Positions 37,425-59,477 of a stretch of 64,000 nt of DNA are shown here, in pieces. The notes below the pieces were generated by a model. The model worked only from the letters and a program-made list of their open reading frames with translations, was not told the DNA's origin and searched no databases. Origin of the DNA: Arcobacteraceae bacterium (GTDB lineage Bacteria > Campylobacterota > Campylobacteria > Campylobacterales > Arcobacteraceae); NCBI GenBank assembly GCA_963662945.1, contig OY759974.1:961436-1025435 (forward strand), written 5' to 3'. The translations under genes and the position numbers were made by a program. Position 1 is the first letter of the stretch; every line of letters starts with the position of its first letter.

Positions 37425-38381
37425 TTGAAAAAAAAGATTTTAGTTATATCATATTCTCAAACCGGACAGCTTGATAATGTTGTCAAAAATTTCATCAAAC
37501 CTCTTGAACAAAATGAAGATACAATACAAGTAACTTGTAAACATATAGAACCAATTAAACCTTATCCTTTTCCGTGGGATGTAATGACATTTATGGACAC
37601 ATTTCCAGAATCAGTGCATCTTAATGGCTGTGAGATTAAAAAATTTGAAAAAGATGAAACAGAATATGATTTGATTATACTTGCTTATCAAGTATGGTTT
37701 CTATCTCCATCAATTCCAATAACAGCTTTTTTAAAATCAAACTATGCAAAACAAAAACTTCAAAATAAACCTGTCATCACCCTTATTGGATGTAGAAATA
37801 TGTGGATTATGGCACAAGAGAAAGTTAAAAAACTTTTAAATGATATTGGAGCAAAACTTATTGATAATGTTGTATTAATAGATAGAGGAAACTCGCTTGA
37901 AACATTTATCACAACTCCTCGTTGGATGTTAACAGGGAAAACCAATTCTTTATGGGGAATGAGTGAAGCTGGAATTGATCCATTAGAGATAAATAATGCA
38001 AATAGATTTGGGAAGGCACTTCTTGAAGCCTTAAGAAATGACAAAGAAAAAGAGTGTATTCCACTACTTCAAGGCTTAAAAGCTGTAGAGGTAAATACAA
38101 AACTTATACGAAGTGAAAAAATTGCAACAAAAAGTTTTCACATTTGGGGTAAACTTATACAAAAACTTGGTGAACCTGGAGATATTAAAAGAAAACCAGT
38201 AGTTATATTATATTTAATCTTTTTACTACTTATTATTCTGACCATTGTACCAATTAATATGATTGTTCAATCAATTTTAAGAAAAATAAATAAAGAGAAA
38301 GTACTCCAAGAAAAAGAATACTATGAATTACCCTCTGGTAATGGGGATGAAAGAATAAAGGAATTTATGATTAATGAATAA
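37425..38381 (+). CDS. darA: DarA-like protein (dialkylresorcinol biosynthesis): flavodoxin-like N-terminus and a C-terminal TM helix
   Basis: 318 aa. KKILVISYSQTGQL flavodoxin-like start and a C-terminal hydrophobic helix VVILYLIFLLLIILTIV. It overlaps the start of the FabH-like gene by 8 nt. The call rests mainly on the conserved darA-darB pairing. Confidence 0.5.
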   Translation: MKKKILVISYSQTGQLDNVVKNFIKPLEQNEDTIQVTCKHIEPIKPYPFPWDVMTFMDTFPESVHLNGCEIKKFEKDETEYDLIILAYQVWFLSPSIPITAFLKSNYAKQKLQNKPVITLIGCRNMWIMAQEKVKKLLNDIGAKLIDNVVLIDRGNSLETFITTPRWMLTGKTNSLWGMSEAGIDPLEINNANRFGKALLEALRNDKEKECIPLLQGLKAVEVNTKLIRSEKIATKSFHIWGKLIQKLGEPGDIKRKPVVILYLIFLLLIILTIVPINMIVQSILRKINKEKVLQEKEYYELPSGNGDERIKEFMINE

Positions 38382-39516
38382 TGTATATATCAATCAAATA
38401 GAAAAGTTTATGCCTAATGAACCTGTTAGTAATGAGGAGATAGAAGAATATCTTGGATATATTGGCGGCAAAAAATCAAAAGCTAAGAATATAGTTTTAA
38501 AAAGCAATGGAATACAAACACGTTACTATGTCCTTGAAAAAGGAACAGAACGACCACTTTTTTCAAATGCTCAACTTACAGCTAATGCAATTAAAAAACT
38601 TGAAAATGACAAATTTTCTTTAAATGATATAGAATGTCTTGCCTGTGGAACAACATCACCTGATCAACTTATGCCAAACCATACACTTATGGTACAAGGC
38701 GAGTTAAAAATAAATGAGATAGAAACTATAAGTGCAAGTGGAATTTGTCTTAGTGGAATCAATGCTTTAAAATATATTTATTATGGTATTAAATGTGGTG
38801 ATTTATCATGTGCAATTGCAACGGGAAGTGAAACTTCTTCTCCAATTTTAAGTGCTAAAAACTTTCAAAAAGAATCAGAACATCTAATCGATGAACTCAA
38901 AAAAAATACAAGTATTGCTTTTGAGAAAGATTTTTTACGATGGATGCTTTCTGATGGTGCAGGAGCTATGAAACTTGAAAATAAACCAAATGAAAATAAA
39001 CTTTCTTTAAAGATAGATTTCATAGATGTACTTTCTTATGCAGGTGAAATGCCTGTATGTATGTATAGTGGACTTAATGTGGAAGGTAATAAAGTTACAT
39101 CATGGAGAGCTTATTCACAAGATGAAGTGATGGCGAAATCACTTCTTTCTGTAAAACAAGATGTAAAACTACTCAATGAAAATATCATTGAATATACAGT
39201 AACAAAACCTATTATCAAAATTGCACAAAAAAGGGATTTAACTGCAGAAAAGTTTGATTATTTTCTACCACATTACTCTTCAACATATTTTAGAGATAAA
39301 CTTTATGAAGGACTCAAAAAAGCTAATTTTGAAATACCTTACGAAAAATGGTTTACAAATCTTACAAAATTTGGAAATACAGGAAGTGCTTCTATGTATA
39401 TTATGTTAGAAGAACTTTTTAATAGTAATACTTTACAAAAAGGTCAAAAAATTCTTTGCTACATACCTGAGAGTGGAAGATTTTCTACTGCATTCATGGC
39501 TTTAGAGGTAGTATGA
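38374..39516 (+). CDS. darB: FabH-like beta-ketoacyl synthase III, DarB-type
   Basis: 380 aa. Candidate Cys-His-Asn triad: SASGICLSG, FLPHYSS, FGNTGSASMY. Confidence 0.7.
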   Translation: MNNVYINQIEKFMPNEPVSNEEIEEYLGYIGGKKSKAKNIVLKSNGIQTRYYVLEKGTERPLFSNAQLTANAIKKLENDKFSLNDIECLACGTTSPDQLMPNHTLMVQGELKINEIETISASGICLSGINALKYIYYGIKCGDLSCAIATGSETSSPILSAKNFQKESEHLIDELKKNTSIAFEKDFLRWMLSDGAGAMKLENKPNENKLSLKIDFIDVLSYAGEMPVCMYSGLNVEGNKVTSWRAYSQDEVMAKSLLSVKQDVKLLNENIIEYTVTKPIIKIAQKRDLTAEKFDYFLPHYSSTYFRDKLYEGLKKANFEIPYEKWFTNLTKFGNTGSASMYIMLEELFNSNTLQKGQKILCYIPESGRFSTAFMALEVV

Positions 39517-39914
39517 AACAGATCACAATTCCCCAAGAGGAAAATAGTACTTTAAATGGCTATCAAAAGGTAATGTATGCACCTAATTCAAATGGTGAGT
39601 TTCAAACATTTAATTACGGAAGTCATGTAGAAGAGTACGCAACAAAACTTGCAGTGGAAGAATATGAAATACTTAAGCAAGAATGTTTAGAAAATATTAA
39701 AAATAATATATCTTCACCAATTGAATATTATATGTATCACAATAGAATGGATATACCAACTTTAGCTTCTGTTGTTGGTTTTTTTCAATTTAGAGTTAAA
39801 AGACACTTACAAGCAAAACATTTTAAAAAACTCAATGATAAAATTCTTCAAAAATATAGTGATGTTTTTGGTATAACACTTGATCAACTAAAAGGTTTTA
39901 ATAATGGAAAATAA
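39513..39914 (+). CDS. Small protein with a possible C-terminal XRE-like helix-turn-helix
   Basis: 133 aa. RMDIPTLASVVGFFQFRVKRHL...LNDKILQKYSDVFGITLDQL follows the XRE HTH spacing by eye. ATGA overlap with darB. Confidence 0.4.
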   Translation: MKQITIPQEENSTLNGYQKVMYAPNSNGEFQTFNYGSHVEEYATKLAVEEYEILKQECLENIKNNISSPIEYYMYHNRMDIPTLASVVGFFQFRVKRHLQAKHFKKLNDKILQKYSDVFGITLDQLKGFNNGK

Positions 39915-40896
39915 TTTTAAGCACAATCAATTTGCACATTGTGAAAGTGGCGTAATATCAACATTATTATCAAACTATGGTCTAAAAATAAGTGAACCTA
40001 TGGCATTTGGAATTACACATTCTTTATCATTTTTTTACTTTCCTCTAATCAAGCTTAACAATATGCCATTAATTGCATATAGGGAAATACCAAAAAACAT
40101 TATCAAAAATATTGATAAAAGACTTGGTGTAAAAATTTATAAAAAACAATATAATGAGCCAATAGTGGCAAATGATGAACTTACTCGTTTAGTTGTTGAT
40201 GAAAAAAAACTTGTTGGTCTACAAACATCTGTTTACTACCTTCCATATATGCCAGAAGATATGAGATTTCATTTTAATGCACATAACTTACTTGTATATG
40301 GGAAAGAAGACGATGAGTATCTTATTTCAGACCCTGTATTTGAAGATGTAGTAAGAGCAAATGAAAATAAATTAACAATTGCAAGATTTGCAAAAGGGGT
40401 TTTTGCACCCAAAGGATTTTTATATTATCCTAAAAGTATTCCTCAAAATATTGATTATGAAACTATACTCAAAAAATCAATCAAAAAAAATGCAAAAACG
40501 ATGACAACACCCTTCCCTTTTGCTGGAGTTAAAGGGATGAGAAAACTAGCAAATGCTGTTGAAAGAATTCAAAACAATCCAAATGAACGATATGTAAAAA
40601 ACTATCTTACACATATTGTTCGTATGCAAGAGGAGATAGGCACTGGTGGCGGTGGTTTTAGATTCTTATACTCTGCATTTTTACAAGAAGCAACACAGTA
40701 TAATTTAGATAAACAAAAACTACAAACAGCAAGTGAACTTATCACACAATCAGGAGATATACTTAGAGAATTTGCTCTAAGATGTGTAATGGGTGCAAAA
40801 CATATTGACAAATTAGATTCAAAAGAGATTGCTACATTTTTAATTGAAGCATCAAAAATAGAAGAGGAAGCTTTTACAATTTTAAAGTCAATCTAA
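39904..40896 (+). CDS. BtrH N-terminal domain (papain-like ACP:acceptor acyltransferase fold) protein
   Basis: 330 aa. N-terminal FAHCESGVISTLLSNYGLKISEPMAFGI matches the HCESG...SE.M.FG signature I associate with BtrH_N/DUF4872 proteins. Confidence 0.6.
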   Translation: MENNFKHNQFAHCESGVISTLLSNYGLKISEPMAFGITHSLSFFYFPLIKLNNMPLIAYREIPKNIIKNIDKRLGVKIYKKQYNEPIVANDELTRLVVDEKKLVGLQTSVYYLPYMPEDMRFHFNAHNLLVYGKEDDEYLISDPVFEDVVRANENKLTIARFAKGVFAPKGFLYYPKSIPQNIDYETILKKSIKKNAKTMTTPFPFAGVKGMRKLANAVERIQNNPNERYVKNYLTHIVRMQEEIGTGGGGFRFLYSAFLQEATQYNLDKQKLQTASELITQSGDILREFALRCVMGAKHIDKLDSKEIATFLIEASKIEEEAFTILKSI

Positions 40897-40959
40897 TTCG
40901 ATAATAAGTAAGTATGTTATAAAATATCGCAGTAATTAATAGAAAAAAAAAGGTAATAA

Positions 40960-41214
40960 ATGGTAAGTAATACAGAGTTAAAAGAGGTTTTAATTAAATA
41001 TCTAAATCTTGAAGATATAGAAGCTAATGAGATAGATGATAACGATCCATTATTTGGAGATGATGGTTTGGGTTTAGATTCTGTTGATTCTATCGAACTT
41101 GTTTTAGCTATTGAAAAAGAGTATGGTGTAAAAATTACCGATTCAACACAATACGATAAAATATTTGCAACAATCTCATCTCTTTTAAACTATATCAATG
41201 ACAATAAAAAATAA
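40960..41214 (+). CDS. Acyl carrier protein 1
   Basis: 84 aa, acidic. Phosphopantetheine site LGLDSVDSIELV. Confidence 0.85.
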   Translation: MVSNTELKEVLIKYLNLEDIEANEIDDNDPLFGDDGLGLDSVDSIELVLAIEKEYGVKITDSTQYDKIFATISSLLNYINDNKK

Positions 41215-42310
41215 AGCTTATATAACAAATACAGCTTTAATTTGTTGTTCTGGAGAAAATGAAGAGCAATTATTTCACAATATTTGTACTGGGAATAGTT
41301 TTATAAAAACTGATACAGACTATTTTCAAAATATACCAGCTGCAATTGGGAAAATCTCTTCTGAACAAACTTTTTTTAATAATCTTCTTCTTAAATGTGA
41401 AGAAATTTTAAATAATAGTAACCTACAAAACTTTGAAGATACGCTTCTTATTATTGGTTCATCTGTAGGTGGAATAGCTATAACTGAAGAGAGTTATTTA
41501 AAAAATGGCAACTATTCACAAATAGACCCAAACTATCATAATATCCATACAATACAAACTATACTTGAAAAAAAATTTAAATTTTCCGATGGGGTTTCTT
41601 TTTCTACAGCTTGTACTTCAAGTGCAAATGCTTTAGGATATGCATATGAAGTTATTACAAAAGGTTTATATCAAAATGTACTAGTACTTGGTGTTGATCA
41701 GTTATCTCAAACTACTGTTGGGGGTTTTTTATCTTTGGGTGTTCTTTCAAGTGAACCTTGTAAACCTTTTGATATAAATAGAGATGGAATGAATGTGGCA
41801 GAAGCAATCGCTTGTCTTTTAATTCAATCAAAACCAAATAACAACAGTATTGAGATTTGTGGAGTGGGATATAGTTCTGATGCTTACCATATGACACATC
41901 CTCATCCTGATGGATTAGGAGCAAAAAGTGCGATGGAAAAAGCACTATCACAAGCGAATATATCTGAAAAAAATATTGACTATATTAATGCTCATGGAAC
42001 AGGTACTGGAGCAAATGACTCTGCTGAAGCAAATGCAATTGCAAATTTATTTACAAATGCCCCTTATGTTAGTTCTACAAAATCTATAACGGGTCATACT
42101 CTAGGAGCTGCTGGTGCTTTAGAAGCGATTATTTGTAAATTAGTCATAAACAATCAAACTATACCAACAAGTACAAACTTAACAAACATTGAGAATGAGC
42201 AAATTAATCTAACAATGCAAAATATAGAAAAAGAGATTAATTATGTAATAAGTAACTCTTTTGCATTTGGTGGTAATAACTGTAGTTTAGTATTTGGGAA
42301 AGTACAATGA
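41198..42310 (+). CDS. Beta-ketoacyl-ACP synthase (FabF/KAS II-like), KS1
   Basis: 370 aa. Cys-His-His triad: STACTSSANALGYA, SDAYHMTHPHPDG, NAHGTGT. Also GHTLGAAG. Confidence 0.88.
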   Translation: MTIKNKAYITNTALICCSGENEEQLFHNICTGNSFIKTDTDYFQNIPAAIGKISSEQTFFNNLLLKCEEILNNSNLQNFEDTLLIIGSSVGGIAITEESYLKNGNYSQIDPNYHNIHTIQTILEKKFKFSDGVSFSTACTSSANALGYAYEVITKGLYQNVLVLGVDQLSQTTVGGFLSLGVLSSEPCKPFDINRDGMNVAEAIACLLIQSKPNNNSIEICGVGYSSDAYHMTHPHPDGLGAKSAMEKALSQANISEKNIDYINAHGTGTGANDSAEANAIANLFTNAPYVSSTKSITGHTLGAAGALEAIICKLVINNQTIPTSTNLTNIENEQINLTMQNIEKEINYVISNSFAFGGNNCSLVFGKVQ

Positions 42311-42951
42311 TAAATTTAGAAATTATAGATGCTGCCTTCATATATGATTCAAAAGAAATAGAAAACCTTCAAACCAAAGAATTAGTTCCAAAAATGGTAA
42401 CAAGAAGAAGATTAACAAGAGCAGCTAAAATTGCCATCTATTTAGCGAATGCTGTTAACTTTACAACAGGACGAATAGTATATGGAAGTAGTTTTGGTGA
42501 GATTCCTGCTACTGCTAGTATATTAAAAAGTATTAAAGATAAAGAGACTATAAGTCCAACAGATTTTCAAAATTCTGTTTATAATACAGCTGCATCTTAT
42601 CTTTCAATGCTATATGGAAATCAAAGTGAGATAATGACTCTCTCTAGTGGAGATAATACCTCTAAAAGTTTACTAAAAATGGGAGCTGTAAAAGCATTAG
42701 ATGGAGATGAAATTCTACTTATTGCTACTGAGACACTTAATATTCCACATATTGAAGAAGTTAATAAGTGTATAGACTACTTAGAATGTGGTGTTGCCTT
42801 GAAAATAAAAGTAACTCAACTGTCACCAAATTTTGATACTATAAATAATGATAATGATTTTTTAAAAGTTCCAAATTCATTAAAAGAGTTATTTAACATT
42901 GCAAAACAATTTAAAGAAACCGAGCAAAATATACTTGAGATTACAATATGA
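42307..42951 (+). CDS. KS-like chain-length-factor partner (no active-site Cys), CLF1
   Basis: 214 aa. RRLTRAAKIAIYLA and TDFQNSVYNTAASYLSMLYG occupy the KS active-site region, but there is no Cys/His/His triad. ATGA overlap with KS1. Confidence 0.6.
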   Translation: MINLEIIDAAFIYDSKEIENLQTKELVPKMVTRRRLTRAAKIAIYLANAVNFTTGRIVYGSSFGEIPATASILKSIKDKETISPTDFQNSVYNTAASYLSMLYGNQSEIMTLSSGDNTSKSLLKMGAVKALDGDEILLIATETLNIPHIEEVNKCIDYLECGVALKIKVTQLSPNFDTINNDNDFLKVPNSLKELFNIAKQFKETEQNILEITI

Positions 42952-43307
42952 AATTACCCCATTTAGAACCTTTAATATTTGCTAAAAAAATTGTAGAAAA
43001 GAATGAAAATAATACTATAGTATTATGTGAATTTCAAGAGATACCAACATTTACAACTTTTATCGAAGCTGCTGCTCAATCAAGTTCATCATTTGTTGAC
43101 CAAGAGAAACCAAAACTAGGTTTTTTAGCTACAGTAAAAAATATTGAACAACATAAAGAATTTGACCAATTACAATATCATATACATTTAAAACTTGAAG
43201 CTCAAATTGCTGAATTTAAACAATTTTATTTTGAAGTTTTTAAGCTTAATAACAATACAGAAGCATACATCTCTGGTAACTTCAGTGTTATTATCAAAGA
43301 AGCATAA
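42948..43307 (+). CDS. Small hotdog-fold protein (FabZ-like N-terminal and central-helix motifs, no HFP catalytic motif)
   Basis: 119 aa. KLPHLEPLIFAKKIV resembles the FabZ LPHRxPFLxVD motif, and FIEAAAQSS resembles the ExxAQ central helix. Confidence 0.45.
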   Translation: MKLPHLEPLIFAKKIVEKNENNTIVLCEFQEIPTFTTFIEAAAQSSSSFVDQEKPKLGFLATVKNIEQHKEFDQLQYHIHLKLEAQIAEFKQFYFEVFKLNNNTEAYISGNFSVIIKEA

Positions 43308-43320: not shown

Positions 43321-43635
43321 TTGCTAAAAGATTTATTTACTATAGTACAAAATACAGATACACAAATAATTGTGAAACTAAGTGATGAAAATCATCCTAT
43401 ATTTAAAGCACATTTTCCAAACTATCCAATACTTCCAGGTTTTTTACTGATTGAAATTGTAGTCAATGTATTAGAGGATACTATAAAAAAAATTCATTCT
43501 GCAAAATTTATAGCTCATACCTTACCTAATGATACTATTATTTATAATATCAATAAAGATGCCTTAAAAACTAAAATCAAAATTGTAAAAGATGATGAAC
43601 AAAATAGTAAAATTGCAGAGATAATCTATGAGTAA
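43321..43635 (+). CDS. 3-hydroxyacyl-ACP dehydratase, FabZ/FabA-like small hotdog
   Basis: 104 aa, TTG start. HFPNYPILPGFLLIEIV is the catalytic His/PG/Glu motif. Confidence 0.7.
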   Translation: MLKDLFTIVQNTDTQIIVKLSDENHPIFKAHFPNYPILPGFLLIEIVVNVLEDTIKKIHSAKFIAHTLPNDTIIYNINKDALKTKIKIVKDDEQNSKIAEIIYE

Positions 43636-44323
43636 ACAAGACACAATAGTAGTAGTACCTACATATAATAACCCTAAAACTATAAAACAAGTGGTTGATG
43701 ATATTTTAAATAATCATTATGAAGTAATAGTAGTTGATGATGGTTCTCTAAATAGTGTAGAAAATATTTTATCTGATGAAAAATATAAAAATGTTCATAT
43801 TGAAACACATTCTGTCAACATAGGGAAAGGTCAAGCAATACTTACTGGTGCAAAAAAAGCGAAACAATTAGGATATAAAAATATTGTTAGCATGGATGGT
43901 GATGGTCAGCACTTAGCAAGTGAAGTTATAAAACTTATAGAAACAAATACAATTGAAAATCAAATCGTCATAGGCTCAAGAAATTTTAATATAGATAACA
44001 TTCCAAAAAAATCTAAAATCGGAAGAGCCTTTCATAACTTTTGGATTAAATTAAATAGTGGATTTAATATTGAAGATTCATTAAGTGGTTTTAGACTTTA
44101 TCCTGTTTCAATTATAGATTTAGGAACTAAAAAAGTGGGTTTTAGTTTTGAAATAGAAGTTTTAGTCAAACATCTTTGGAAATATCAACATATGACACAA
44201 GCTACAATTGAATGTTTTTATCCAAAACCAGAAGATAGGGTAAGTCATTTTGATAACTATAAAGATACTCTTAGATTTATCCTCTTACATTTACAATTAT
44301 TTTTTTTAAAATTTTTAAAATAA
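43628..44323 (+). CDS. Family 2 glycosyltransferase
   Basis: 231 aa. Motifs VVVPTYNN, VIVVDDGS and DGDGQH. Confidence 0.8.
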   Translation: MSKQDTIVVVPTYNNPKTIKQVVDDILNNHYEVIVVDDGSLNSVENILSDEKYKNVHIETHSVNIGKGQAILTGAKKAKQLGYKNIVSMDGDGQHLASEVIKLIETNTIENQIVIGSRNFNIDNIPKKSKIGRAFHNFWIKLNSGFNIEDSLSGFRLYPVSIIDLGTKKVGFSFEIEVLVKHLWKYQHMTQATIECFYPKPEDRVSHFDNYKDTLRFILLHLQLFFLKFLK

Positions 44324-44402: not shown

Positions 44403-45362
44403 ATGAAAAATATTTTTAAGTATATTGGTACTGCATTATTTGTATTGATATTAACAGGATGTGGTGGTACAGCTATTTACAATATTGACAATAGTAATAC
44501 AATAGCAGGTAAAACTTCAATGAAACAAATTGAAACTGCTATTAAAAAAGGTGCTTTAAGAAAAAATTGGTCTGTTAAAAAGGAAAAAGAGGGGTTACTT
44601 ACAGCTACAGTTAACGTAAGAGGAAAACATATTGCTGTTGTTTCAATCTCATACGATACAAAAGGTTATAAAATTGATTATAAAGACAGTCAAGGTTTAG
44701 ATTATGATGCATCTTCTAATACTATCCACAAAAATTATAATAAATGGATATCTAACTTAGAAAGAAATATCAACTATGAATTAGCACAAATAGGTTTACA
44801 GCAAACTAGTTCAGCTATTCAAACAACAAATCCTACATCACAACCCGTTGCAACAAAACCTGCAACTGTTACAACTACAAATGTAAAAAAGGCTGGTGAT
44901 TTAAGTCTTGGGGGTAAAACAGTATATATTAAAAGTGTTATCCCTTATGCCCCTACAGCACCTGTTGCTCCAAACATCAAAGCAGAATGTATTATAGATC
45001 AACAACTCAGTGAGTTTATAGTTAAATCAGCACAAGCAAGTGGTCTAAATGTGGTGGTAAAAAATGATATTGGGAAAAATGATATAGAACTAAAAGTTGA
45101 AATTGCTGATGCAGTAAGTCAAGGTGGTGCATTTAGAGGACATAATAAATATGTTGCAATCAATGGTGCTTTAGTTCAAGGAGATAAACAATTTCAATCT
45201 TTCAAAGCAGCTAGAATTTCTGGTGGAGGTTTCTGGGGTGCATACAAAAGTTCTTGTGCTGTGTTAGGAAGAACAGTAGAGGCATTAGGTAAAGATGTTG
45301 GTGTATGGTTATCAAGTCCTATTGATGGTGCTAGACTTGGCGATACTTACCTCATAAGATAA
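44403..45362 (+). CDS. Lipoprotein of unknown function: two domains joined by a T/P/Q-rich linker
   Basis: 319 aa. Lipobox ILTGCGG and linker QQTSSAIQTTNPTSQPVATKPATVTTTN. Confidence 0.55.
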   Translation: MKNIFKYIGTALFVLILTGCGGTAIYNIDNSNTIAGKTSMKQIETAIKKGALRKNWSVKKEKEGLLTATVNVRGKHIAVVSISYDTKGYKIDYKDSQGLDYDASSNTIHKNYNKWISNLERNINYELAQIGLQQTSSAIQTTNPTSQPVATKPATVTTTNVKKAGDLSLGGKTVYIKSVIPYAPTAPVAPNIKAECIIDQQLSEFIVKSAQASGLNVVVKNDIGKNDIELKVEIADAVSQGGAFRGHNKYVAINGALVQGDKQFQSFKAARISGGGFWGAYKSSCAVLGRTVEALGKDVGVWLSSPIDGARLGDTYLIR

Positions 45363-47214: not shown

Positions 47215-47316
47215 TATTTCTCCTAAATTAAAGCATAATCTTATCATATAATTAGTTAACTTTAGTTATAATTTAGATTATTAAAATTAATATATTATAT
47301 ATAGGAAAAGTTCTTT

Positions 47317-51476: not shown

Positions 51477-51959
51477 TTGCAAAAGAAATATGTATTTATA
51501 TTATTATTTTTATCTAATATATTATTTTCAAAAGAGGTACACTTCAATGAAACTAAATATATCTATGCACTTGATAATAAGTTTAGTAAAGTTGGTACTT
51601 TAAATATAGAAGATGCTAAAGTTACCTTGCACTACAAAAATAGTGATAAAAAAGTTATATACACAGATGAAAATATACAAATTATAACTTCAAATACAAC
51701 TGAAATTTATACCCATGAAGAGAGTCTAGAATACAATATATTTTTCCAACTTGTTCTTGGTATATATACAAACAACACCTCACAATTAGGTGAAAATTTC
51801 ACACTAAAACAAGATAAAAACCTTGTTACTTTGATACCAAATGAATATCTCTCTTCAGTTATTGAGACAATCGAATATGAAAAAAACAATAACACACTCA
51901 AATTTCTTAAAATAAATTTTACAAATCAAGATAGGATTACTATTGAAGAGACTAAGTAA
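51477..51959 (+). CDS. LolA-like outer-membrane lipoprotein carrier family protein (tentative)
   Basis: 160 aa, TTG start, signal peptide. All-beta-looking sequence immediately upstream of and overlapping the MMPL gene, as in ape clusters. Confidence 0.45.
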   Translation: MQKKYVFILLFLSNILFSKEVHFNETKYIYALDNKFSKVGTLNIEDAKVTLHYKNSDKKVIYTDENIQIITSNTTEIYTHEESLEYNIFFQLVLGIYTNNTSQLGENFTLKQDKNLVTLIPNEYLSSVIETIEYEKNNNTLKFLKINFTNQDRITIEETK

Positions 51960-54018
51960 CTACATCAATTTTATTATCCTATCCATACTACTTGCTATAT
52001 TTTTTATAACAAATATTCCCAGTCATATCTCTACACAAATCACAAGTATCCTTCCAAATGGAGAAAATAAAGCACTGTTGAAAGAGTTTGAAAAACTCAA
52101 TACAACCAAACAACTTTTTGTAGCCTACAAGGGTGACAATACTATAACACTTGATAAACTTAAAAATATAGAACGTATGCTTTTAAAACACAAAAATATT
52201 CATCCTTTTACGCAAACAAGTGCCAATAAAATCTTTGAAAAAAAGTATTACTATCTGACTCATAAATTCAATGAAACTAAATATAACTCACTAGATATAG
52301 TAACTGAACTTTCTTTATTACATAAACAAATTCTCACTTCACCTTTTAGTGTTTCTCTTGATACAACTGATCCACTTAATCTTTTTGAAAAAAACTCAAC
52401 CCTTCGAACCTCTTATGTAAAAATAAAAAACTATGGATATTTAACAATTTTACAACTTGATAAAAGTATTAATAATTTTACTGCTTATAAAGAGATATAT
52501 GATTTTGCTCAAAATTTGAAAAAGACAGATACAAATATAGAGGTATTTTCTACTTTGTTTTATTTTGTGGAAAATCAAGAAAAAATCAAAAATGATGTCA
52601 ATATCATCATCACTTTTGCATTGAGTATATTATTTATTTTATATATTGTGATTTTAAGAGATATAAAACTTCTTATTCAAACTATTACTACTCTTGGCTC
52701 ATCTATTATTTTTGCTATACTTATTAGTATTTTACTATTTGATGAAATATCAATATTTACTATGATTTTTGGTATCTCTATCTCAACTATTGCTATTGAT
52801 TATATGTTCCATAATTATATGCATGGATATTATGAACAAAATAAAGTTACACTCAATAAAGATGTTTTTTTTGGGATGAGTACAACTGTTGGGGCTCTTT
52901 TAATACTCTCCTTTGTTGATTTCAGTTTTATTCAACAACTCACAGTTTTTTCAATATGTGCATTACTCTTTTCATATATTCTATTTACTTTTTTATTTCC
53001 TTACTTAAATATACAACCACAAAAACCATCAAAACTCATACAAAATAAATTTACAATCAAACCATTGTATATAACGATAATTTCAATAATTTTAATCACC
53101 CTTGCAATCTCAAATCTAAAAATTGATTTTAATATTAAAAATCTTGATATTGATAATAAAGAGTTACAATCTTTAGATAACTTTTTTAATAAACATATAA
53201 ACAAAGATAAAAAAACAGCTGTATTACTCTATGCATCTTCTATAGAAGAATTAGTAAACTATTCACATAACTTACAAATAAAATATCCCAAGATTCAAAA
53301 TCCACTTGCAAATATTCCAACATCTAATAGTTTTGAAATCTTTGATACAAAAAGATTGAAAGAATTGAACAAAAAACTCAATGAAAATGCCAATAAAATT
53401 GGCTTTCGAAAAAACTTTTTTCAAAATAGTTATATAGTTCCACAAAATACTCCACAATACACACTTGAAGCACTTGCAGAATTTCCTATAAGTCAATATA
53501 AAAACCTTTTTATAAGTTATGCAATAGTAGCTAACAATGACTATAAAAATATTATTCAAGAACCTTATATCAAAGCTTTAAGTTTTAAAGAATTATTTCA
53601 AAAAGATTTAACAAAGTCTCTAAAAACTTTACAGTATTTATCATTTGTTGCACTACTATTTATATTAATTATGCTCTATATTGCTGTAAGAAATAACTTC
53701 ATGAAAGCTTTAAATTATATTTTATTTCCAATTGCCATAACATTGTTAGTCTCCTTTTTTATAGAATTAAATATTTTACATATTTTTATGATGATCATTG
53801 TAATCTCAATAAGTATTGACTATGGAATTTATATGAGTAATACAAACCTAAGTAGTAATACGCAAAAAGCGATATTTTATTCTTTACTTTCTACTTTTGC
53901 TGGATTCGGTGTTTTAATTTTTTCTAAGGTAAATGCCCTATTTTCAATTGGTCTTATAGCAACTCTTGGTATAGTGTCACTTATAATTTTATTATTAACA
54001 CATAAGGTTCCTCGATGA
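51943..54018 (+). CDS. MMPL/RND-superfamily exporter
   Basis: 691 aa, TTG start. Two blocks of about 5-6 TM helices (residues ~210-360 and ~570-690), each preceded by a large soluble loop. Confidence 0.65.
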   Translation: MKRLSNYINFIILSILLAIFFITNIPSHISTQITSILPNGENKALLKEFEKLNTTKQLFVAYKGDNTITLDKLKNIERMLLKHKNIHPFTQTSANKIFEKKYYYLTHKFNETKYNSLDIVTELSLLHKQILTSPFSVSLDTTDPLNLFEKNSTLRTSYVKIKNYGYLTILQLDKSINNFTAYKEIYDFAQNLKKTDTNIEVFSTLFYFVENQEKIKNDVNIIITFALSILFILYIVILRDIKLLIQTITTLGSSIIFAILISILLFDEISIFTMIFGISISTIAIDYMFHNYMHGYYEQNKVTLNKDVFFGMSTTVGALLILSFVDFSFIQQLTVFSICALLFSYILFTFLFPYLNIQPQKPSKLIQNKFTIKPLYITIISIILITLAISNLKIDFNIKNLDIDNKELQSLDNFFNKHINKDKKTAVLLYASSIEELVNYSHNLQIKYPKIQNPLANIPTSNSFEIFDTKRLKELNKKLNENANKIGFRKNFFQNSYIVPQNTPQYTLEALAEFPISQYKNLFISYAIVANNDYKNIIQEPYIKALSFKELFQKDLTKSLKTLQYLSFVALLFILIMLYIAVRNNFMKALNYILFPIAITLLVSFFIELNILHIFMMIIVISISIDYGIYMSNTNLSSNTQKAIFYSLLSTFAGFGVLIFSKVNALFSIGLIATLGIVSLIILLLTHKVPR

Positions 54019-55199
54019 CACTCAAAGTTTACAATGATAATGGTTCAATAACAGAACATATTATCTGCAAAGATACACTATCAAAAACAACTTTAGAAAA
54101 TGAAATTACTCATATTGGGTTAAGTACAAAAGAGGAAAATATTTTAAATATTTTTAAAACTTATTTTAATAATTCAAAAGCGATACTTTTTGATAAAAAC
54201 AATAAAGCAATCATCGAAAAAATAAAACAAGTTGATTTTAAAGATTTTGATCAATTTGACTTTTCATTTATCTATTTTACTTCAGGGACTACAGGTTCCC
54301 CTGTTGGTGCTTTCAAAACAAAAGAAAATTTTTTAAGTGAGATTAAACAACTTACAAAACTTTTTGAAAAATATACAATTAAAAGAGTTATTGTAACTGT
54401 TCCTTTTATCCATTTTTACGGTTCACTTTTAGGGGCAATTTATCCTTTGATAAATGATATTGATATTATCATCAAAGAACATTTTTTACCTCATGATTTA
54501 TTGGAGTTAGTAGATGAATACTCAATGGTAGTTACCACACCATTGTATATCAAATCATTAAATAAACTTGAGACAAAAAAAGATTTAAGTAAATCAATTT
54601 TTATAAGTTCTACTGCACCTCTTTTCCCTGATGTAGCACAAGAGTTTCATACAAATTTTTCCACTGATGTAATTCAAATTTTTGGTTCAACCGAAACAGG
54701 TGGTATCGCTTACAAATACAATGATGATGAAAAGTGGACCCCAATGGATAGTGTTGAAATATCTCAAAATGAGGAAGGGGAACTTAAAGTAAAATCCCCT
54801 TTTATCTCCAATGTTCTTTATGAAGATGAATTTAAAATCACAAACCATACGATTCAAACATTTGATTATGTGGAGATTGAAAATAATCAATTCAAACTAG
54901 TAGGAAGAAGTTCTCAAATAATAAAACTAGCTGGAAAAAGATATTCTACGGTACAAATAGAAAATATTCTTGAAGCGCAACCAAATATAGAAAAAGCGGT
55001 TGTATTTGTAAGTACCCACAAAGATAATTTACGAGGAGAAGAACTTAATATCACCCTTCAAACAAAAGAAAATATTCTTGTAAAAGATATAAAAACACTT
55101 CTTAAAAAAGAGTTGTCTAATATGCGATTTAATATTAATCTCAAATTAGTTGATGAGATAAAAACAACGCTCGTTGGAAAAAAGATGTTGATACAATAG
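54015..55199 (+). CDS. Adenylate-forming acyl/aryl-CoA or -ACP ligase (AMP-binding)
   Basis: 394 aa. Motifs YFTSGTTGSPVGAFKT, IFGSTETGG, VGRSSQIIKLAGKRYS and a C-terminal GKK. Confidence 0.85.
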   Translation: MTLKVYNDNGSITEHIICKDTLSKTTLENEITHIGLSTKEENILNIFKTYFNNSKAILFDKNNKAIIEKIKQVDFKDFDQFDFSFIYFTSGTTGSPVGAFKTKENFLSEIKQLTKLFEKYTIKRVIVTVPFIHFYGSLLGAIYPLINDIDIIIKEHFLPHDLLELVDEYSMVVTTPLYIKSLNKLETKKDLSKSIFISSTAPLFPDVAQEFHTNFSTDVIQIFGSTETGGIAYKYNDDEKWTPMDSVEISQNEEGELKVKSPFISNVLYEDEFKITNHTIQTFDYVEIENNQFKLVGRSSQIIKLAGKRYSTVQIENILEAQPNIEKAVVFVSTHKDNLRGEELNITLQTKENILVKDIKTLLKKELSNMRFNINLKLVDEIKTTLVGKKMLIQ

Positions 55200-55201: not shown

Positions 55202-56062
55202 ATGGCAATAGAGATAAAAAACTTAACTAAATCCTATAAAAACAACAAGGTACTTGATGCCCTTTCATTAAATATCAAAGAGGGTTCTCTTTTTGGACTT
55301 TTAGGACCAAATGGGGCAGGAAAAACCACTTTAGTATCCATTATGAATTATCTTCAATCTTATGATAGTGGAACCATAAATATTTTTGGATACGATTATG
55401 AAAAAGAGAAAAAACAAATCAAACAAATAAGTTCTTATGTACCACAAACATATGCCTTTTATCCAAATCTAACTGCATATGAAAATCTTGAATTTTTTGG
55501 AGCGTTGTATGGATTGCAAAATACCCAACTAAAAAAAAGAATTAATGAGTGTATCGAGATAACCTCTTTAGAAAAATTTTTAGATAAACGAGCACACACA
55601 TATTCAGGTGGAGTAAAAAGAAGATTAAATATTGCAATTGGACTACTTAATAGTCCAAAAATCCTTTACCTAGATGAACCAACTGTTGGGATTGACCCAC
55701 AATCAAGGAAATATATTCTTGATGTTATAAAGCAAATTAATAAAGAGGATAAAACAACTATTATTTATACTTCACATTATATGGAGGAGATAGAATATCT
55801 TTGTGATGATATTGCAATTCTTGATAATCAAAAAATTATTTTACACGAAACCAAAGAATTACTTTTAGATAAAAGCTCTTTACTTACAATCAAAACGGCA
55901 GAAAAAGAGATACAAGTTGATGTAAAAAATGGGTATGATAATTTACTTGATACACTCAATCTTCTTAAAAAGCAAAATATATCTATAGAAAATATTGCTT
56001 TTAATAATAAAAATTTAGAAGAGCTATTTTTAAATCTAACAAAAGGGAATTTAAGAGACTAA
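55202..56062 (+). CDS. ABC transporter ATP-binding protein
   Basis: 286 aa. Motifs GPNGAGKTT, YSGGVKRRL and LYLDEPTVGID. Confidence 0.9.
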   Translation: MAIEIKNLTKSYKNNKVLDALSLNIKEGSLFGLLGPNGAGKTTLVSIMNYLQSYDSGTINIFGYDYEKEKKQIKQISSYVPQTYAFYPNLTAYENLEFFGALYGLQNTQLKKRINECIEITSLEKFLDKRAHTYSGGVKRRLNIAIGLLNSPKILYLDEPTVGIDPQSRKYILDVIKQINKEDKTTIIYTSHYMEEIEYLCDDIAILDNQKIILHETKELLLDKSSLLTIKTAEKEIQVDVKNGYDNLLDTLNLLKKQNISIENIAFNNKNLEELFLNLTKGNLRD

Positions 56063-57225
56063 TGTTTAAATATATTTTAAAAAAAGAATTTTTATTGCTT
56101 AGTCGAGATATTCATGCACTTTTAGTATTGTTTATTATGCCTACACTTTTTATTATCATTATGTCATTAGCACTACAAAATACCTATTCAAATAGTGTTG
56201 ATACAAAATTTAAAGTAGCAATCAATACAATAAGCAATAAAGACACAGCCTTTATAACACAAGAGATAAATAAAAATAACTATTTTCAAGCACAAATCGT
56301 AAATAATGAAAAAATAAAAGAACTTATATATACACAAAATTTTGATTTAATTGTCAATATAGTTCAAGAGTACAAAACTGATATTAATACAAATAAAAAG
56401 GATTTTCACATAGATATTTTTATCAATCCTAATCTTTCTTTACAAAATCAATTATTATTTAAAAATCTATTAACAGAAATTATTTCAAAACAAATTATGA
56501 AAGAGTATTTTATAAAAAATAAAATAGATGCTAAAACTTTATCTACTTTAAATAAAAAGATGACAATTATTCCAACATATAAAGAAGAAAAATTTACTAT
56601 AAAACCAACTTCTGTACAATACAGTGTACCATCTTGGCTTGTTTTTTCAATGTTTTTTATCCTCATTCCAATTTCAAATGCTTTTATAAATGAGAGAAAT
56701 TTTGGAACCATACAGAGATTAAAAAGTATGAATATTCCTTTTATTTTAATAATTTTAGGTAAAATGGTACCATACTTTATAATAAACCAGATTCAAGTGT
56801 TATTTATGATACTAGTTGGAATTTATGTTGTACCTTTATTAAATGGAGATACACTTCAAATAAATGGTAATTATGGTTTAATTTTTACAATGAGTGGTGC
56901 AATTTCATTTGCAGCTATCTCTTTTGCAATATTTATAGCAAATATTAGTAGTACTTCAGAAGAAGCAACTACAATTGGCGGTGTCTCAAATATAATTTTA
57001 GCGGCACTTGGTGGTATTATGGTACCAAAATTTGTGATGCCAGAATTTATGCAAAATATTACAATTTTTTCACCTATGAACTGGGGACTTGAAGGGTTAT
57101 TGGAAATTTTTGTAATAGGTGGTAATTTTAATGATATTAAGGCTTACATCCTTTATCTAATGATATTTGGATGTTGCTTTTTATTTTTATCGTATCTATT
57201 TTTAAAGAAAAAGGAAAATTTATAA
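56062..57225 (+). CDS. ABC-2 type transporter permease
   Basis: 387 aa. One N-terminal TM helix, a large extracytoplasmic loop, then 5 C-terminal TM helices. The start abuts the ATPase stop. Confidence 0.75.
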   Translation: MFKYILKKEFLLLSRDIHALLVLFIMPTLFIIIMSLALQNTYSNSVDTKFKVAINTISNKDTAFITQEINKNNYFQAQIVNNEKIKELIYTQNFDLIVNIVQEYKTDINTNKKDFHIDIFINPNLSLQNQLLFKNLLTEIISKQIMKEYFIKNKIDAKTLSTLNKKMTIIPTYKEEKFTIKPTSVQYSVPSWLVFSMFFILIPISNAFINERNFGTIQRLKSMNIPFILIILGKMVPYFIINQIQVLFMILVGIYVVPLLNGDTLQINGNYGLIFTMSGAISFAAISFAIFIANISSTSEEATTIGGVSNIILAALGGIMVPKFVMPEFMQNITIFSPMNWGLEGLLEIFVIGGNFNDIKAYILYLMIFGCCFLFLSYLFLKKKENL

Positions 57226-57491
57226 TGTCAAGTTTTGACACAGAAGAACTAAAAGAAGAGCTTAAACAACTTATTATTGATGAGTGTGAAAAAGATTATG
57301 AAGCTTCAGATATAACAAACGATGAGATACTTTTTGGATCTGATTCTAAACTTCAACTTGACTCTTTAGACGCATTACAAATTTCACTTGCTTTAAACAA
57401 AAAATATAATCTTAATACGACAGATAGTAAAGAACTTCGTAAAATAATGGTTTCTATCAACTCTTTAGCAGAACATATTCAATCAATATAA
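57225..57491 (+). CDS. Acyl carrier protein 2
   Basis: Start moved to ATG 57225 (MSSFDTEELKEE...), which gives a TAATG overlap with the permease stop. Phosphopantetheine site LQLDSLDALQISL. Confidence 0.8.
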   Translation: MSSFDTEELKEELKQLIIDECEKDYEASDITNDEILFGSDSKLQLDSLDALQISLALNKKYNLNTTDSKELRKIMVSINSLAEHIQSI

Positions 57492-58639
57492 TGAAAAAAG
57501 TTTATATAACTGGTTCCTCATTAATTTGTGCGCTAGGTAATGATAAATTTCAAAGCATACAAACTGCAACACAAATAGAAAATAAAAACTACAAAAATTT
57601 TTTCCAAGACAATCATGATGGTTTTAATTTTTTTAAAATAAAGCAAACTTTTTCAAGTGAAAAAGAGAAATTTTATACAATATTACAAGATGCTGTATCT
57701 CAAGCTATAAAAGATGCAAATCTATCAATAGAGGAACAAAAAGAGCTACATATATTTATAGGCTCAACTTCTATGTCAATATCTATTAATGAAGAGCAAA
57801 GTCAACTTTATTATGATAATCAATCTAAAAAAATGCTTGCAGAAATTGGTTATGGAAACATAGGTACATTTGTTGAAAAAATTGTAAATTCAAAATATAA
57901 AGCAACTATACTGCAAACTGCTTGTACTTCAACAGCAAACTCTATAGCCTATGCAACTGAATTTATACAAGCAAATAAAATAAAAAAAGCTTTAATAGTA
58001 GGTTTAGAACTTTTTAACAAATCAACATATAAAGGTTTTGAATCCTTAATGCTTTTAAGTAAAAATGGTATCTACAAACCTTTTGATAAAGAAAGTGATG
58101 GTTTAATTTTAGGGGAAGCCTGTTCAGCGATTATTTTAGATACGAATAAAGTTGAAGATTCTAATTTTCAAGTTTTATCATCAAATACCTCTTTTGATAA
58201 TTATTCTATAACTGGTTCAAATCCCACAGGGGAAACTACTTGTGCATCTATGAAGCAAGCTTTAGAAAAAGCAAATCTTCGTATCAAAGATTTAACGTGT
58301 ATTAAAGCCCATGCAACAGGGAGTGAAAATTCAAATCTTTCTGAAGCAAAAGCACTTGATACACTTTTTAAAATATACAATGAAAAAACTGATGTAGTAA
58401 TTTTAAAACCATTTTTAGGACATTCACTTGGAGCTTGTGGTACAGCTGAAACTGTTTTGCTTTGTGAATTTATAAATAAGGGATTTATCCCAAAAACACT
58501 TAACTATAAAAATGGTTATGAAGATATATCTTTTGAACCTTTATTAGAAAATAAACCTGTTACTAATGCTACAATTTTATTGCAGTTCATAGGTTTTGGC
58601 GGAAGTAATGTAACTTTAATATTAAGTAATAAAGGTTAA
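57491..58639 (+). CDS. Beta-ketoacyl-ACP synthase (FabF-like), KS2, with an atypical Cys-Ser-His set
   Basis: 382 aa. QTACTSTANSIAYA (Cys), KAHATGS (second His) and GHSLGACG. An ungapped by-eye alignment to KS1 places FDNYSITGSNPTG opposite SDAYHMTHPHPDG, so Ser replaces the first catalytic His. Confidence 0.8.
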   Translation: MKKVYITGSSLICALGNDKFQSIQTATQIENKNYKNFFQDNHDGFNFFKIKQTFSSEKEKFYTILQDAVSQAIKDANLSIEEQKELHIFIGSTSMSISINEEQSQLYYDNQSKKMLAEIGYGNIGTFVEKIVNSKYKATILQTACTSTANSIAYATEFIQANKIKKALIVGLELFNKSTYKGFESLMLLSKNGIYKPFDKESDGLILGEACSAIILDTNKVEDSNFQVLSSNTSFDNYSITGSNPTGETTCASMKQALEKANLRIKDLTCIKAHATGSENSNLSEAKALDTLFKIYNEKTDVVILKPFLGHSLGACGTAETVLLCEFINKGFIPKTLNYKNGYEDISFEPLLENKPVTNATILLQFIGFGGSNVTLILSNKG

Positions 58640-58643
58640 ATTT

Positions 58644-59477
58644 ATGTATATTAGCGCAACTTTTAATGAAACTTTTCAAAATCATTCAACTAAAGAATAT
58701 AAACAACTTCTCAAACAACTTACTTCAAAACAATTTAGAAGAGTATCAAAGTTCAATATTATGGCTATTTATGGTGCTCTTAAATGTCTTGAAAATAAAA
58801 CTTATACTACAGATATCAATATTTATACAGCAAGTGAATATGGTTGTATTGAAGATATGAATACAGTACTTATGCAAGTAAGTAAAAAAGATGAAATAGT
58901 AATGCCTTTTGATTTTTTAAATATCAATGGAAACAATGTAGGTTTTTTAATCTCAGAAGCACTTAATACTCTAGGAAATAACTTTTATATAACTGCGGAA
59001 GATGTTTCTTTTGAACAAGCATTTCACTTATCCTATTTTGATCTTTCAATCAATAAAATAAAAGAAGCCTTAGTTGGTGCTGTTGATGAATCACTTGATT
59101 CTGTTACAAATGTAAATAGTATGATTAAAAATCCTGAAGGTTACAAAATTTGTGATGGAACAGCTTGGTTTTTACTTTCTAAAAATAAAAATAATGCTAT
59201 TGCTAAAATAGAGCATCTAGAAACATTTAGCAATCTTGAAGAATTAAATAGCTTTTTACAAAATTTACAATACGATTATCTCAGTTTAAATCTTTCTGCA
59301 AAAAAAAATATAACTCATCTAAACATAGTTCAAAAAAAAATTATATCTCAAAATGAAATATTTTTTGGAACATATAGTGCTATGTATATAAGCCATCTTT
59401 TAAACTATAAAGGGAAACTTCTCCATATAAGTTTAGATGAAAATTATAGAGCTTATCTTTTCTACTTTAATAAATAA
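58644..59477 (+). CDS. KS-like chain-length-factor-type partner (no active-site Cys), CLF2
   Basis: 277 aa. FRRVSKFNIMAIYGAL and FDFLNINGNNVGFLISEAL parallel CLF1 (RRLTRAAKIAIYLA, TDFQNSVYNTAASYLSML). No Cys/His/His triad. Confidence 0.5.
   Translation: MYISATFNETFQNHSTKEYKQLLKQLTSKQFRRVSKFNIMAIYGALKCLENKTYTTDINIYTASEYGCIEDMNTVLMQVSKKDEIVMPFDFLNINGNNVGFLISEALNTLGNNFYITAEDVSFEQAFHLSYFDLSINKIKEALVGAVDESLDSVTNVNSMIKNPEGYKICDGTAWFLLSKNKNNAIAKIEHLETFSNLEELNSFLQNLQYDYLSLNLSAKKNITHLNIVQKKIISQNEIFFGTYSAMYISHLLNYKGKLLHISLDENYRAYLFYFNK

Follow-up and report, generated by a model that had tools for sequence, protein, structure and literature searches.

A flexirubin-like aryl-polyene and dialkylresorcinol gene cluster predicted in Arcobacteraceae, with relatives across Campylobacterota

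Could an Arcobacteraceae bacterium make a membrane pigment of the flexirubin kind, in which an aryl polyene is combined with a dialkylresorcinol? The question arises from a ~22-kb gene block at positions 37425-59477 of the window, by which we mean the whole 64,000-nucleotide stretch analyzed here, part of a 2.5-Mb contig (OY759974.1) of an Arcobacteraceae metagenome-assembled genome. A sequence-only reading of the window had assigned the block to the aryl-polyene (APE) clusters with an added darAB module, and curated hidden Markov models (HMMs), relatives in the PDB, and comparison with a Bacteroidota flexirubin-type locus all back that assignment. Judged by its genes, the block is a real membrane-pigment gene cluster of the aryl-polyene plus dialkylresorcinol (flexirubin-like) type and a recognizable member of a known family, relatives of which are carried by many Campylobacterota genomes. 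Gene identities, module structure, and conservation are directly established.

The block is tightly packed. With a threshold of at least 70 aa, we recovered the 26 open reading frames (ORFs) that had been described, 24 on the plus strand and 2 on the minus strand, with spacings between neighbors of -17 to +105 bp. The 4-bp ATGA overlaps at 39513, 42307, 42948, and 54015 and the TAATG junctions at 57225 and 57491 lie where they had been placed, and there is an additional TAATG junction at 56062. The translations contain the quoted motifs: DSVDS and DSLDA in the acyl carrier proteins (ACPs), HFPNYPILPGFLLIE, and ASG in the 4-methylideneimidazole-5-one (MIO) lyase. Profile HMMs, searches against solved structures, and structure predictions for two proteins upheld nearly every item of the earlier parts list. 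The HMM libraries gave no family match for eight of the 26 ORFs.

Which genes would build the polyene chain? The core of the polyene module reads as follows:

ACP1 (DSVDS), 40960..41214, plus strand: PP-binding, E=2.5e-11; PRK09184, 74 bits (cutoff 70).
KS1, 41198..42310, plus strand: predicted polyene-elongating ketosynthase (KS); Ketoacyl-synt N and C domains; Cys-His-His motifs present.
CLF1, 42307..42951, plus strand: predicted short chain-length factor (CLF) for KS1; Pfam Ketoacyl-synt_2, E=5.6e-20.
DH1, 42948..43307, plus strand: probable hotdog dehydratase (DH) subunit of 119 aa; weak FabZ profile match.
DH2, 43321..43635, plus strand: ApeI/FabZ-like hotdog dehydratase subunit (HFPNYPILPG); Pfam FabA, E=5e-6.
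Ketoreductase (KR), 49718..50422, plus strand: FabG-like; adh_short and KR domains.
Short adenylating ligase, 54015..55199, plus strand: putative starter-acid activation; AMP-binding, E=7.8e-20.

The KS1 and CLF1 genes share a 4-bp overlap, and their structural relatives are telling. The best PDB relatives of KS1 are 9s5h_B, 7f28_B, and 6qsp_A (ApeO), at E=1e-51 to 1e-56, and CLF1 matches 7f28_A and 6qsp_B (ApeC), 6qsp being the Xenorhabdus ApeO:ApeC complex. Thus, the block holds a ketosynthase with a short Cys-less CLF of the ApeO:ApeC type, which is one mark of the APE family. It also holds a ketoreductase and a two-subunit hotdog dehydratase, and HMM searches found no enoyl reductase family among the 26 ORFs, so the chain would stay a conjugated polyene. 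ACP1 (by PRK09184) and the AMP-binding ligase appear to provide the carrier protein and adenylating enzyme of the family; the ligase partially matches the 386-aa 4-coumarate-CoA ligase model TIGR02372 (73 bits, under cutoff). LPLAT, GT2, LolA-like, and MMPL/RND-like proteins complete the picture as a predicted export and anchoring set.

The two hotdog proteins of the sequence-only reading fared differently. DH2 was borne out by Pfam FabA, by a precomputed Pfam annotation of the identical protein as ApeI-like (PF22818), and by PDB matches to FabZ and 6qsr. DH1 gave no HMM match, a single-sequence PDB search returned nothing, and a profile-profile comparison with DH2 was not significant. Its residues H5, E40, and Q44 are invariant among 28 homologues, and the gene always adjoins CLF1 at the related loci; its assignment rests on a weak FabZ similarity and this synteny.

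Several of these proteins match FabF, FabG, FabZ, and LpxL-type models, and the flanking cdsA and dxr are core lipid and isoprenoid genes, as one would expect of ordinary fatty-acid, phospholipid, or lipid A genes lying together by chance. However, the scores fall far short of every housekeeping equivalog cutoff (FabF, 225 bits for KS1 against a cutoff of 494; FabZ, 32 against 113; LpxL, 40 against 248), which places the block outside primary lipid metabolism. The KR likewise stays under the cutoff of the 3-oxoacyl-ACP reductase model, at 246 bits. Primary lipid synthesis has no use for CLF proteins, an MIO lyase, or a halogenase, and models for DarB, DarG, and DarH were passed. The HMM results and the PDB relatives of KS1 and CLF1 effectively refute chance assembly of lipid genes, to which we give next to no credence.

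The other half of the product would come from a dialkylresorcinol (dar) module, which in the window is split between the 5' end (DarA, DarB, DarG, and DarH) and the 3' end (ABC, ABC-2, ACP2, KS2, and a CLF-like partner). These two parts lie side by side in A. nitrofigilis and A. cryaerophilus. The genes of the module are:

DarA, 37425..38381, plus strand: dialkylresorcinol aromatase/oxidase type; flavodoxin-like domain and C-terminal membrane helices.
DarB, 38374..39516, plus strand: StlD/DarB-family FabH-like ketosynthase/cyclase.
DarG-family protein, 39513..39914, plus strand: NF053536, 139.7 bits (cutoff 70).
DarH, 39904..40896, plus strand: BtrH-related acyltransferase; NF053550, 463 bits (cutoff 300).
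ABC ATPase, 55202..56062, plus strand: ABC_tran; DrrA subfamily, 259 bits; equivalent of Azoarcus DarF.
ABC-2 permease, 56062..57225, plus strand: ABC2_membrane_3, E=5e-27; DarI equivalent.
ACP2 (DSLDA), 57225..57491, plus strand: PP-binding, E=0.005; DarC equivalent.
KS2, 57491..58639, plus strand: FabF-type ketosynthase; Ketoacyl-synt N and C domains; DarJ equivalent.
CLF-like partner of KS2, 58644..59477, plus strand: 277 aa; predicted CLF-like fold; DarK equivalent.

DarB with an adjacent DarA and the accessory DarG-family and DarH proteins are the constituents of a DarAB-type dialkylresorcinol locus, and all are present. A profile-HMM search of each ORF, which had been proposed as a check, passed the cutoffs of the DarB, DarG, DarH, and ACP1 models, with DarB reaching 601 bits against NF005293 (cutoff 450). 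For DarA no curated HMM was available, and it matched nothing in Pfam or NCBIfam; among its 6462 homologues, some (in Arcobacter, Malaciobacter, and Aliarcobacter) carry the NCBI name "dialkylrecorsinol condensing enzyme." The DarA gene lies directly upstream of DarB with an 8-bp overlap, and the protein has a hydrophobic segment at residues 253-288. Its AlphaFold2 (AF2) model (pLDDT 91) leads Foldseek to flavodoxin/WrbA folds, which would suit the oxidative aromatase role reported for DarA. DarH, with Pfam BtrH_N and DUF4872 domains, is a candidate enzyme to link the ACP-bound polyene with the resorcinol; a tblastn search with DarH against plasmids found distant BtrH_N proteins (24-29% identity; Streptomyces, Bacillus, Acinetobacter) in uninformative contexts.

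What is a second ketosynthase pair doing in this cluster? The sequence-only reading had described two ketosynthases, each with a Cys-less partner; both pairs are present, but the KS2 pair belongs to the dar module and is not a second polyene KS:CLF. We place it there because the Azoarcus dar set is identical and because, among the 65 related loci described below, the 3' set (ABC, ABC-2, ACP2, KS2, and partner) is seen only at those having DarABGH. The KS2 set probably makes dedicated beta-ketoacyl precursors. C145, H274, and H311 of KS2 are invariant in 21 homologues. The ATG of ACP2 at 57225 overlaps the preceding stop, and ACP2 scores 49 bits with PRK09184, under the cutoff of 70. The 277-aa partner gave no HMM match, and its profile-profile comparison with KS2 was not significant; it aligned to CLF1 (hhalign E=3.4e-4) and to the CLF of Bacteroidota locus L069 (26% identity, E=1e-7). 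Its AF2 model (pLDDT 91.9, pTM 0.90) has as top Foldseek matches the CLF chains 6kxe_B (TM 0.78), 6smo, and 6qsp_B, from the ishigamide, anthraquinone, and ApeO:ApeC systems. Two public labels in this family look wrong: a homologue labelled Rickettsiales, and the JGI family name "GTP:adenosylcobinamide-phosphate guanylyltransferase."

That the modelled KS2 partner appears structurally closest to the ishigamide CLF, and that KS1 and ACP1 give sub-threshold matches to the cispentacin AmcF and AmcB models, raises the idea that the product is no aryl polyene but a non-pigment compound from a highly reducing type II polyketide synthase (PKS), for example a polyene amide like ishigamide or a compound like cispentacin. 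The cispentacin scores all fall well under the family cutoffs, KS1 and CLF1 are closest to ApeO:ApeC-type pairs, and the block has the hallmarks of aryl-polyene and flexirubin loci: ammonia-lyase, ligase, LolA/MMPL/GT2/LPLAT set, and DarAB. We regard a non-pigment product as very unlikely.

A precedent for a polyene joined to a dialkylresorcinol outside Bacteroidota is Azoarcus sp. BH72, whose arcuflavin is a xanthomonadin-dialkylresorcinol hybrid (PMC3949708). The Azoarcus dar genes are darA, darB, darD for a conserved hypothetical protein, darE (BtrH-like), darF and darI (ABC ATPase and permease), darC (ACP), darJ (KS), and darK, whose product is also hypothetical (PMC3949708). This gene set is identical to that of the window, and a halogenase, LolA, an exporter, a glycosyltransferase (GT), and an acyltransferase also occur in both. 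The starter differs: Azoarcus draws on chorismate through a XanB2-type enzyme to give 3- or 4-hydroxybenzoate, whereas the window has an ammonia-lyase instead, and no XanB2-type chorismatase family was detected among the 26 ORFs by HMMs. Moreover, the Azoarcus genes lie in three separate regions, while those of the window form one block.

Among Bacteroidota, the nearest known counterparts are the flexirubin clusters of Flavobacterium johnsoniae (Fjoh_1075-1110) and Chitinophaga pinensis (flxA-flxY and darAB; PMC3992019). Chitinophaga flexirubin synthesis involves initiation by a tyrosine ammonia-lyase (TAL) and ligase, and a LolA, GT, acyltransferase, and exporter set (PMC3992019). The window shares with Bacteroidota flexirubin loci the ammonia-lyase and ligase; a KS/CLF/KR/DH set like type II fatty-acid synthase (FAS) but without enoyl reductase; DarA and DarB with DarG- and DarH-family proteins; and the LolA, GT2, LPLAT, and MMPL-type set. 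Bacteroidota locus L069 has the lyase-KR adjacency of the window and homologues of its ACP, KS, KR, GT2, LPLAT, MMPL, and CLF. In contrast, L069 and Chitinophaga have three to five KS genes, compared with a single polyene KS:CLF pair in the window. The window also lacks the 4HBT thioesterase, methyltransferase, and polysaccharide deacetylase, and its MMPL-like protein is much more diverged. None of its proteins reaches equivalog level for FlxA, FlxB, or flexirubin_DarG. Altogether, the gene content suggests that the locus works like a flexirubin/arcuflavin cluster without being an equivalog-level flexirubin member.

With the ape clusters of E. coli CFT073, Xenorhabdus doucetiae, and Vibrio fischeri, the window has in common an ApeO:ApeC-like KS1:CLF1, an ApeI/ApeP-type hotdog pair, a KR, ACPs, an adenylating ligase, LPLAT, GT2, LolA-like and MMPL-like proteins, a small membrane protein, and lipoproteins. 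It differs from them in having no ApeK-type thioesterase, stand-alone second initiation KS in the polyene module, or methyltransferase, and in its additional ammonia-lyase, halogenase-like gene, and full dar module. The ApeK-type thioesterase, which L069 has, is not universal in the APE family.

How widespread is this arrangement? We scanned one genome per GTDB species with an RND/MMPL-like alignment and two peptide patterns, a search by which absence is not provable, and obtained 65 related loci, all in Campylobacterota. The carriers are Arcobacter, Aliarcobacter, Halarcobacter, Poseidonibacter lekithochrous, Marinarcus, Sulfurovum, Sulfurospirillum, and Sulfuricurvum. Polyene genes are present at 49 of the 65 loci, and at 27 of these the dar module is physically linked, across several Campylobacterota families. 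The commonest layout is a [DH1 CLF1 KS1 ACP1] block divergent from a second block (DH2, GT2, LPLAT, ammonia-lyase, KR, membrane protein, LolA, MMPL, ligase, ABC, ABC-2, ACP2, KS2, and partner), followed by an inverted DarH-G-B-A. In the window and its three closest relatives, this layout has been rearranged into a fully co-directional form. Relative to the window, the ACP1-DH1, DH2-to-partner, and DarA-H blocks have been rearranged repeatedly (L002, L003, L009, and others).

Two further genes bear on the starter acid and on tailoring:

MIO aromatic amino-acid ammonia-lyase, 48187..49707, plus strand: Lyase_aromatic, 475 bits; presumed TAL for the starter acid.
Flavin-dependent halogenase-like enzyme, 46000..47247, minus strand: Trp_halogenase, E=7.5e-23; accessory.

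The lyase is the most conserved protein of the cluster, with 69-97% full-length identity across families (median 83%; L004-L068). Its scores are under the respective cutoffs of the TAL, histidine ammonia-lyase (HAL), and FlxA models. Its specificity motifs are FH and YGG, compared with FL/LGQ in the phenylalanine ammonia-lyase (PAL) AvPAL and SH/HGE in HAL, and the Phe-His and Gly positions are invariant or nearly so among 47 homologues. The L069 lyase is likewise atypical (SH/HGD), and the characterized FlxA was reported to be atypical and defied motif-based substrate prediction. We therefore assume the substrate of the lyase and do not predict it. Reading that substrate from the two published specificity motifs was tried and dropped, given FH/G in the window, SH/D in L069, and the atypical FlxA. 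At one Sulfurospirillaceae locus (L044), the polyene module is in its usual order with no detectable ammonia-lyase between LPLAT and KR, which suggests another source of starter acid there.

The halogenase-like protein contains GGGPSG (the GxGxxG FAD motif) and WLWIIP (WxWxIP). Its best NCBIfam match, CmlS, scores 160 bits, far under cutoff, and a geranylgeranyl-reductase family also scores 120 bits. The gene is accessory: it occurs at 18 of the 49 polyene loci, and its position varies, with other loci having it between DH1 and DH2 or beside ACP1. This variation is consistent with an accessory tailoring gene gained or lost several times.

What, then, would the cluster make? We think it reasonably probable, on our analysis of the genes, that the two modules together make one flexirubin-like pigment, an aryl-polyene acid esterified to a dialkylresorcinol in the outer membrane. 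From the gene set we infer the substrates, ester formation, halogenation, and outer-membrane localization of this pathway. The MIO ammonia-lyase would deaminate an aromatic amino acid, presumably tyrosine to 4-coumarate, and the short ligase would activate and load the starter acid. KS1:CLF1, the KR, and DH1:DH2 would then extend the chain on ACP1 with malonyl units, and the halogenase, where present, may chlorinate or brominate the ring. In the resorcinol module, to which the ABC-2 pair belongs, KS2 with its CLF-like partner and ACP2 would supply beta-ketoacyl precursors, DarB would cyclize two acyl chains, and DarA would then aromatize the ring. The BtrH-type DarH is the best candidate for transferring the polyene from its ACP to the resorcinol hydroxyl, a transfer that would explain the missing thioesterase. 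GT2, LPLAT, the small membrane protein, and the LolA-like, RND/MMPL-like, and lipoprotein components may anchor the pigment in, or move it to, the outer membrane.

Several observations count against this single-ester pathway. The pigment is predicted from genes, and our search found no paper reporting such a pigment in Campylobacterota. The narrower flexirubin-type models are missed: DarB scores 496 with resorcinol_DarB (cutoff 550), the DarG-family protein 114 bits with the flexirubin_DarG equivalog (cutoff 170), the KR 245 bits with FlxB (cutoff 340), and the lyase 354 bits with FlxA (cutoff 700). The lyase motifs match none of HAL, PAL, or TAL, which makes tyrosine an assumption; the catalytic lysine was not located in the halogenase-like protein; and the FabZ profile match of DH1 is weak (E=0.05, over an EAAAQ-type motif). 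As the sequence-only reading had noted of these families as well as of enoyl reductase, HMMs detected no thioesterase (ApeK-type/4HBT), methyltransferase, or phosphopantetheinyl transferase among the 26 ORFs. Finally, ~15 polyene loci have room after the ligase and no dar module there. This suggests that the modules can work apart and that the ester is not guaranteed.

These polyene-only loci keep alive the alternative that the cluster makes two separate products: an aryl polyene like those of E. coli and Vibrio, with a lipid or glycolipid anchor, made via LPLAT/GT2 and exported by the LolA-like and RND/MMPL-like proteins, and a free, unesterified dialkylresorcinol exported by the ABC-2 pair to serve as a signal or antioxidant. 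In keeping with it, the ~15 loci (including Sulfurospirillum arcachonense L034 and several Sulfurovum) have a complete polyene module, every polyene locus keeps LPLAT and GT2, and the dar module brings a transporter and a KS:CLF:ACP set of its own and stays together as a unit when loci are rearranged. The linkage of the modules in 27 loci across families speaks for a joint product instead, as does the single co-directional block of overlapping genes in the window. DarH, moreover, always travels with DarAB and is an acyltransferase of the BtrH type, whose donors are acyl groups on an ACP, and the characterized relatives flexirubin and arcuflavin are esters (PMC3992019, PMC3949708). On balance, two separate products seem doubtful to us.

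A bolder version of the ester pathway would see an old, modular Campylobacterota pigment system. In it, dar (DarABGH, a previously unrecognized KS:CLF:ACP set, and the ABC-2 exporter) would be an optional add-on to a lipid-anchored aryl polyene, DarH would be the long-sought ester-forming enzyme, and the highly conserved lyase, with Gly where HAL has Glu and AvPAL has Gln, might use something other than plain tyrosine, giving a new head group. Taken jointly, these propositions are rather unlikely to all hold. If they do, sister lineages with and without dar or the halogenase would form a natural knockout series.

Is the cluster, whether or not it makes a single ester, a recent arrival? The sequence-only reading had left the choice between an ancient origin and an AT-rich donor; the first of these is favored by the 49 polyene loci among the 65, often in the same neighborhood, and by housekeeping-like divergence. 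As had been claimed, the flanks are core genes by family matches, purL on one side and cdsA-dxr on the other, and in several genera the cluster lies next to cdsA-dxr or purL. Median identities to the window, taken outside its own lineage, are 83% for the lyase, 75% for DarB, 56% for KS1, and 37% for the MMPL-like protein, and 83% for purL, 77% for dxr, and 63% for cdsA; the divergence of the cluster proteins thus tracks that of the housekeeping genes. Outside the phylum, named DarH relatives (Bacteroidota, Holophagaceae, Oligoflexales) share 36-41% identity, and the Bacteroidota flexirubin-type locus shares 25-47% protein by protein. Conserved neighbors, housekeeping-like divergence, and distant outside relatives indicate long residence in the phylum, and we favor, from these comparisons, a cluster that is old in Campylobacterota and no recent import.

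Recent horizontal transfer was considered and rejected: there is no composition shift, the neighbors are conserved, and outside relatives are at most 47% identical. GC content is 0.25-0.31 over block and flanks, and the reported lack of tRNA genes holds in the window, which has no mobile-element genes either. An Rfam search of the window gave no match, and a promoter/terminator scan found no more sites than in shuffled sequence, which is uninformative in AT-rich DNA.

One contig titled "Helicobacter pylori PMSS1" (L049, CAMCYD010000005.1) carries an Arcobacteraceae-like cluster with an 89% identical lyase; its label looks wrong.

How new would such a pigment be? Aryl-polyene clusters are generally regarded as the most widespread family of biosynthetic clusters among Gram-negative bacteria, and aryl polyenes protect against oxidative stress in other bacteria. 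The claim that no pigment or cluster of this type has been characterized in Campylobacterota stood up in a literature search on Arcobacter and Campylobacterota, which gave only unrelated papers. A search on the colony pigmentation of P. lekithochrous and A. cryaerophilus returned nothing usable. The name of the first refers to the color of egg yolk, and yellowish colonies have been described for the second, which is a lead only and no evidence. DarA is already named in public records and NCBIfam models recognize DarB, DarG, and DarH; with automatic names already on the genes, only modest novelty is left. The cluster is otherwise an expected family member, and standard cluster-mining tools should flag such a locus. 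If the product is made, Campylobacterota, whose members include microaerophiles and sulfur oxidizers, would gain its first assigned pigment pathway. The phylum also offers natural variants, polyene only or polyene plus dialkylresorcinol, each with or without the halogenase, that could be used to test flexirubin-type ester formation and the role of the extra dar KS:CLF:ACP set.

The remaining genes of the block, together with one neighbor, concern export, anchoring, and the cell envelope:

GT2 glycosyltransferase, 43628..44323, plus strand: polyprenol-phosphate-sugar synthase type; Glycos_transf_2, E=1.2e-19.
Lipoprotein of 319 aa, 44403..45362, plus strand: LTGC lipobox; no family match.
Lipoprotein of 203 aa, 45367..45978, plus strand: FSGC lipobox; lineage-specific.
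LPLAT/LpxL-type acyltransferase, 47317..48183, plus strand: Lip_A_acyltrans, E=1.1e-12; homologues named LPLAT.
Small polytopic membrane protein, 50425..50949, plus strand: several hydrophobic segments; weak VC0807-family match, E=1.5e-4.
Sbal_3080-family lipoprotein, 50952..51371, minus strand: NF040519, 119 bits (cutoff 80); FTGC lipobox.
LolA-like periplasmic lipid carrier, 51477..51959, plus strand: 160 aa; profile match to a LolA-family structure.
RND/MMPL-like inner-membrane exporter, 51943..54018, plus strand: 691 aa; identified by profile, homologues, and topology.
Lipoprotein alpha/beta hydrolase (DUF915), 36354..37325, minus strand: abuts the cluster, outside the 37425-59477 block first described.

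For the LolA-like protein, a profile of 31 homologues matches the LolA-family structure 8t5j (E=8e-7, residues 21-156). The RND/MMPL-like protein has a profile match to HpnN (6wu0, E=4.9e-4), a tblastn match to the Pfam-MMPL gene of Bacteroidota L069 (E=1e-9), Pfam MMPL in 3 of 32 homologues, and a two-fold 1+5 transmembrane topology (1+5/1+5) with two large loops. GT2 shares 38% identity with the L069 GT2, and LPLAT shares 28% with the copy in the Bacteroidota cluster. The position of the small membrane protein between KR and LolA is conserved. Of the lipoproteins, the 319-aa one has a conserved C-terminal half (tblastn, 29-60% in more than 20 loci) and the Sbal_3080-family one is found at three other loci only; the 203-aa one has no family match and no homologue at the other loci.

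The LolA-like and RND/MMPL-like pair also occurs by itself, at 30-37% identity and with no polyene genes, at 14 loci (L029, L033, L035, L036, L039-L042, L043, L051, L056, L059, L064, and L065). At three of these (L035, L043, and L064), the pair adjoins cdsA-dxr, as does the full cluster. Such pairs could be remnants after cluster loss or an older paralogous pair.

The DUF915 hydrolase (Pfam E=2.8e-15, with weaker PGAP1, LCAT, and Palm_thioest matches) has an FTGC lipobox and an AHSMGG nucleophile elbow. Homologues with 39-44% identity precede ACP1 by ~55 bp, in the same orientation, at two loci (L027, 47-961; L038, 1630-2544). It is a possible accessory member of the cluster and may act for the pathway in the periplasm, as an esterase or acyltransferase; a role as cytoplasmic thioesterase is excluded.

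At the far end of the window, an ORF of more than 1366 aa (2-4099, minus strand) runs off the window start. The ORF resembles a giant repetitive adhesin: it is made up of tandem repeats, each ~100 aa long and nearly identical to the others, with much T, V, D, and G. Its presence explains why the first 4 kb have a GC content of 0.40 and are strongly skewed.

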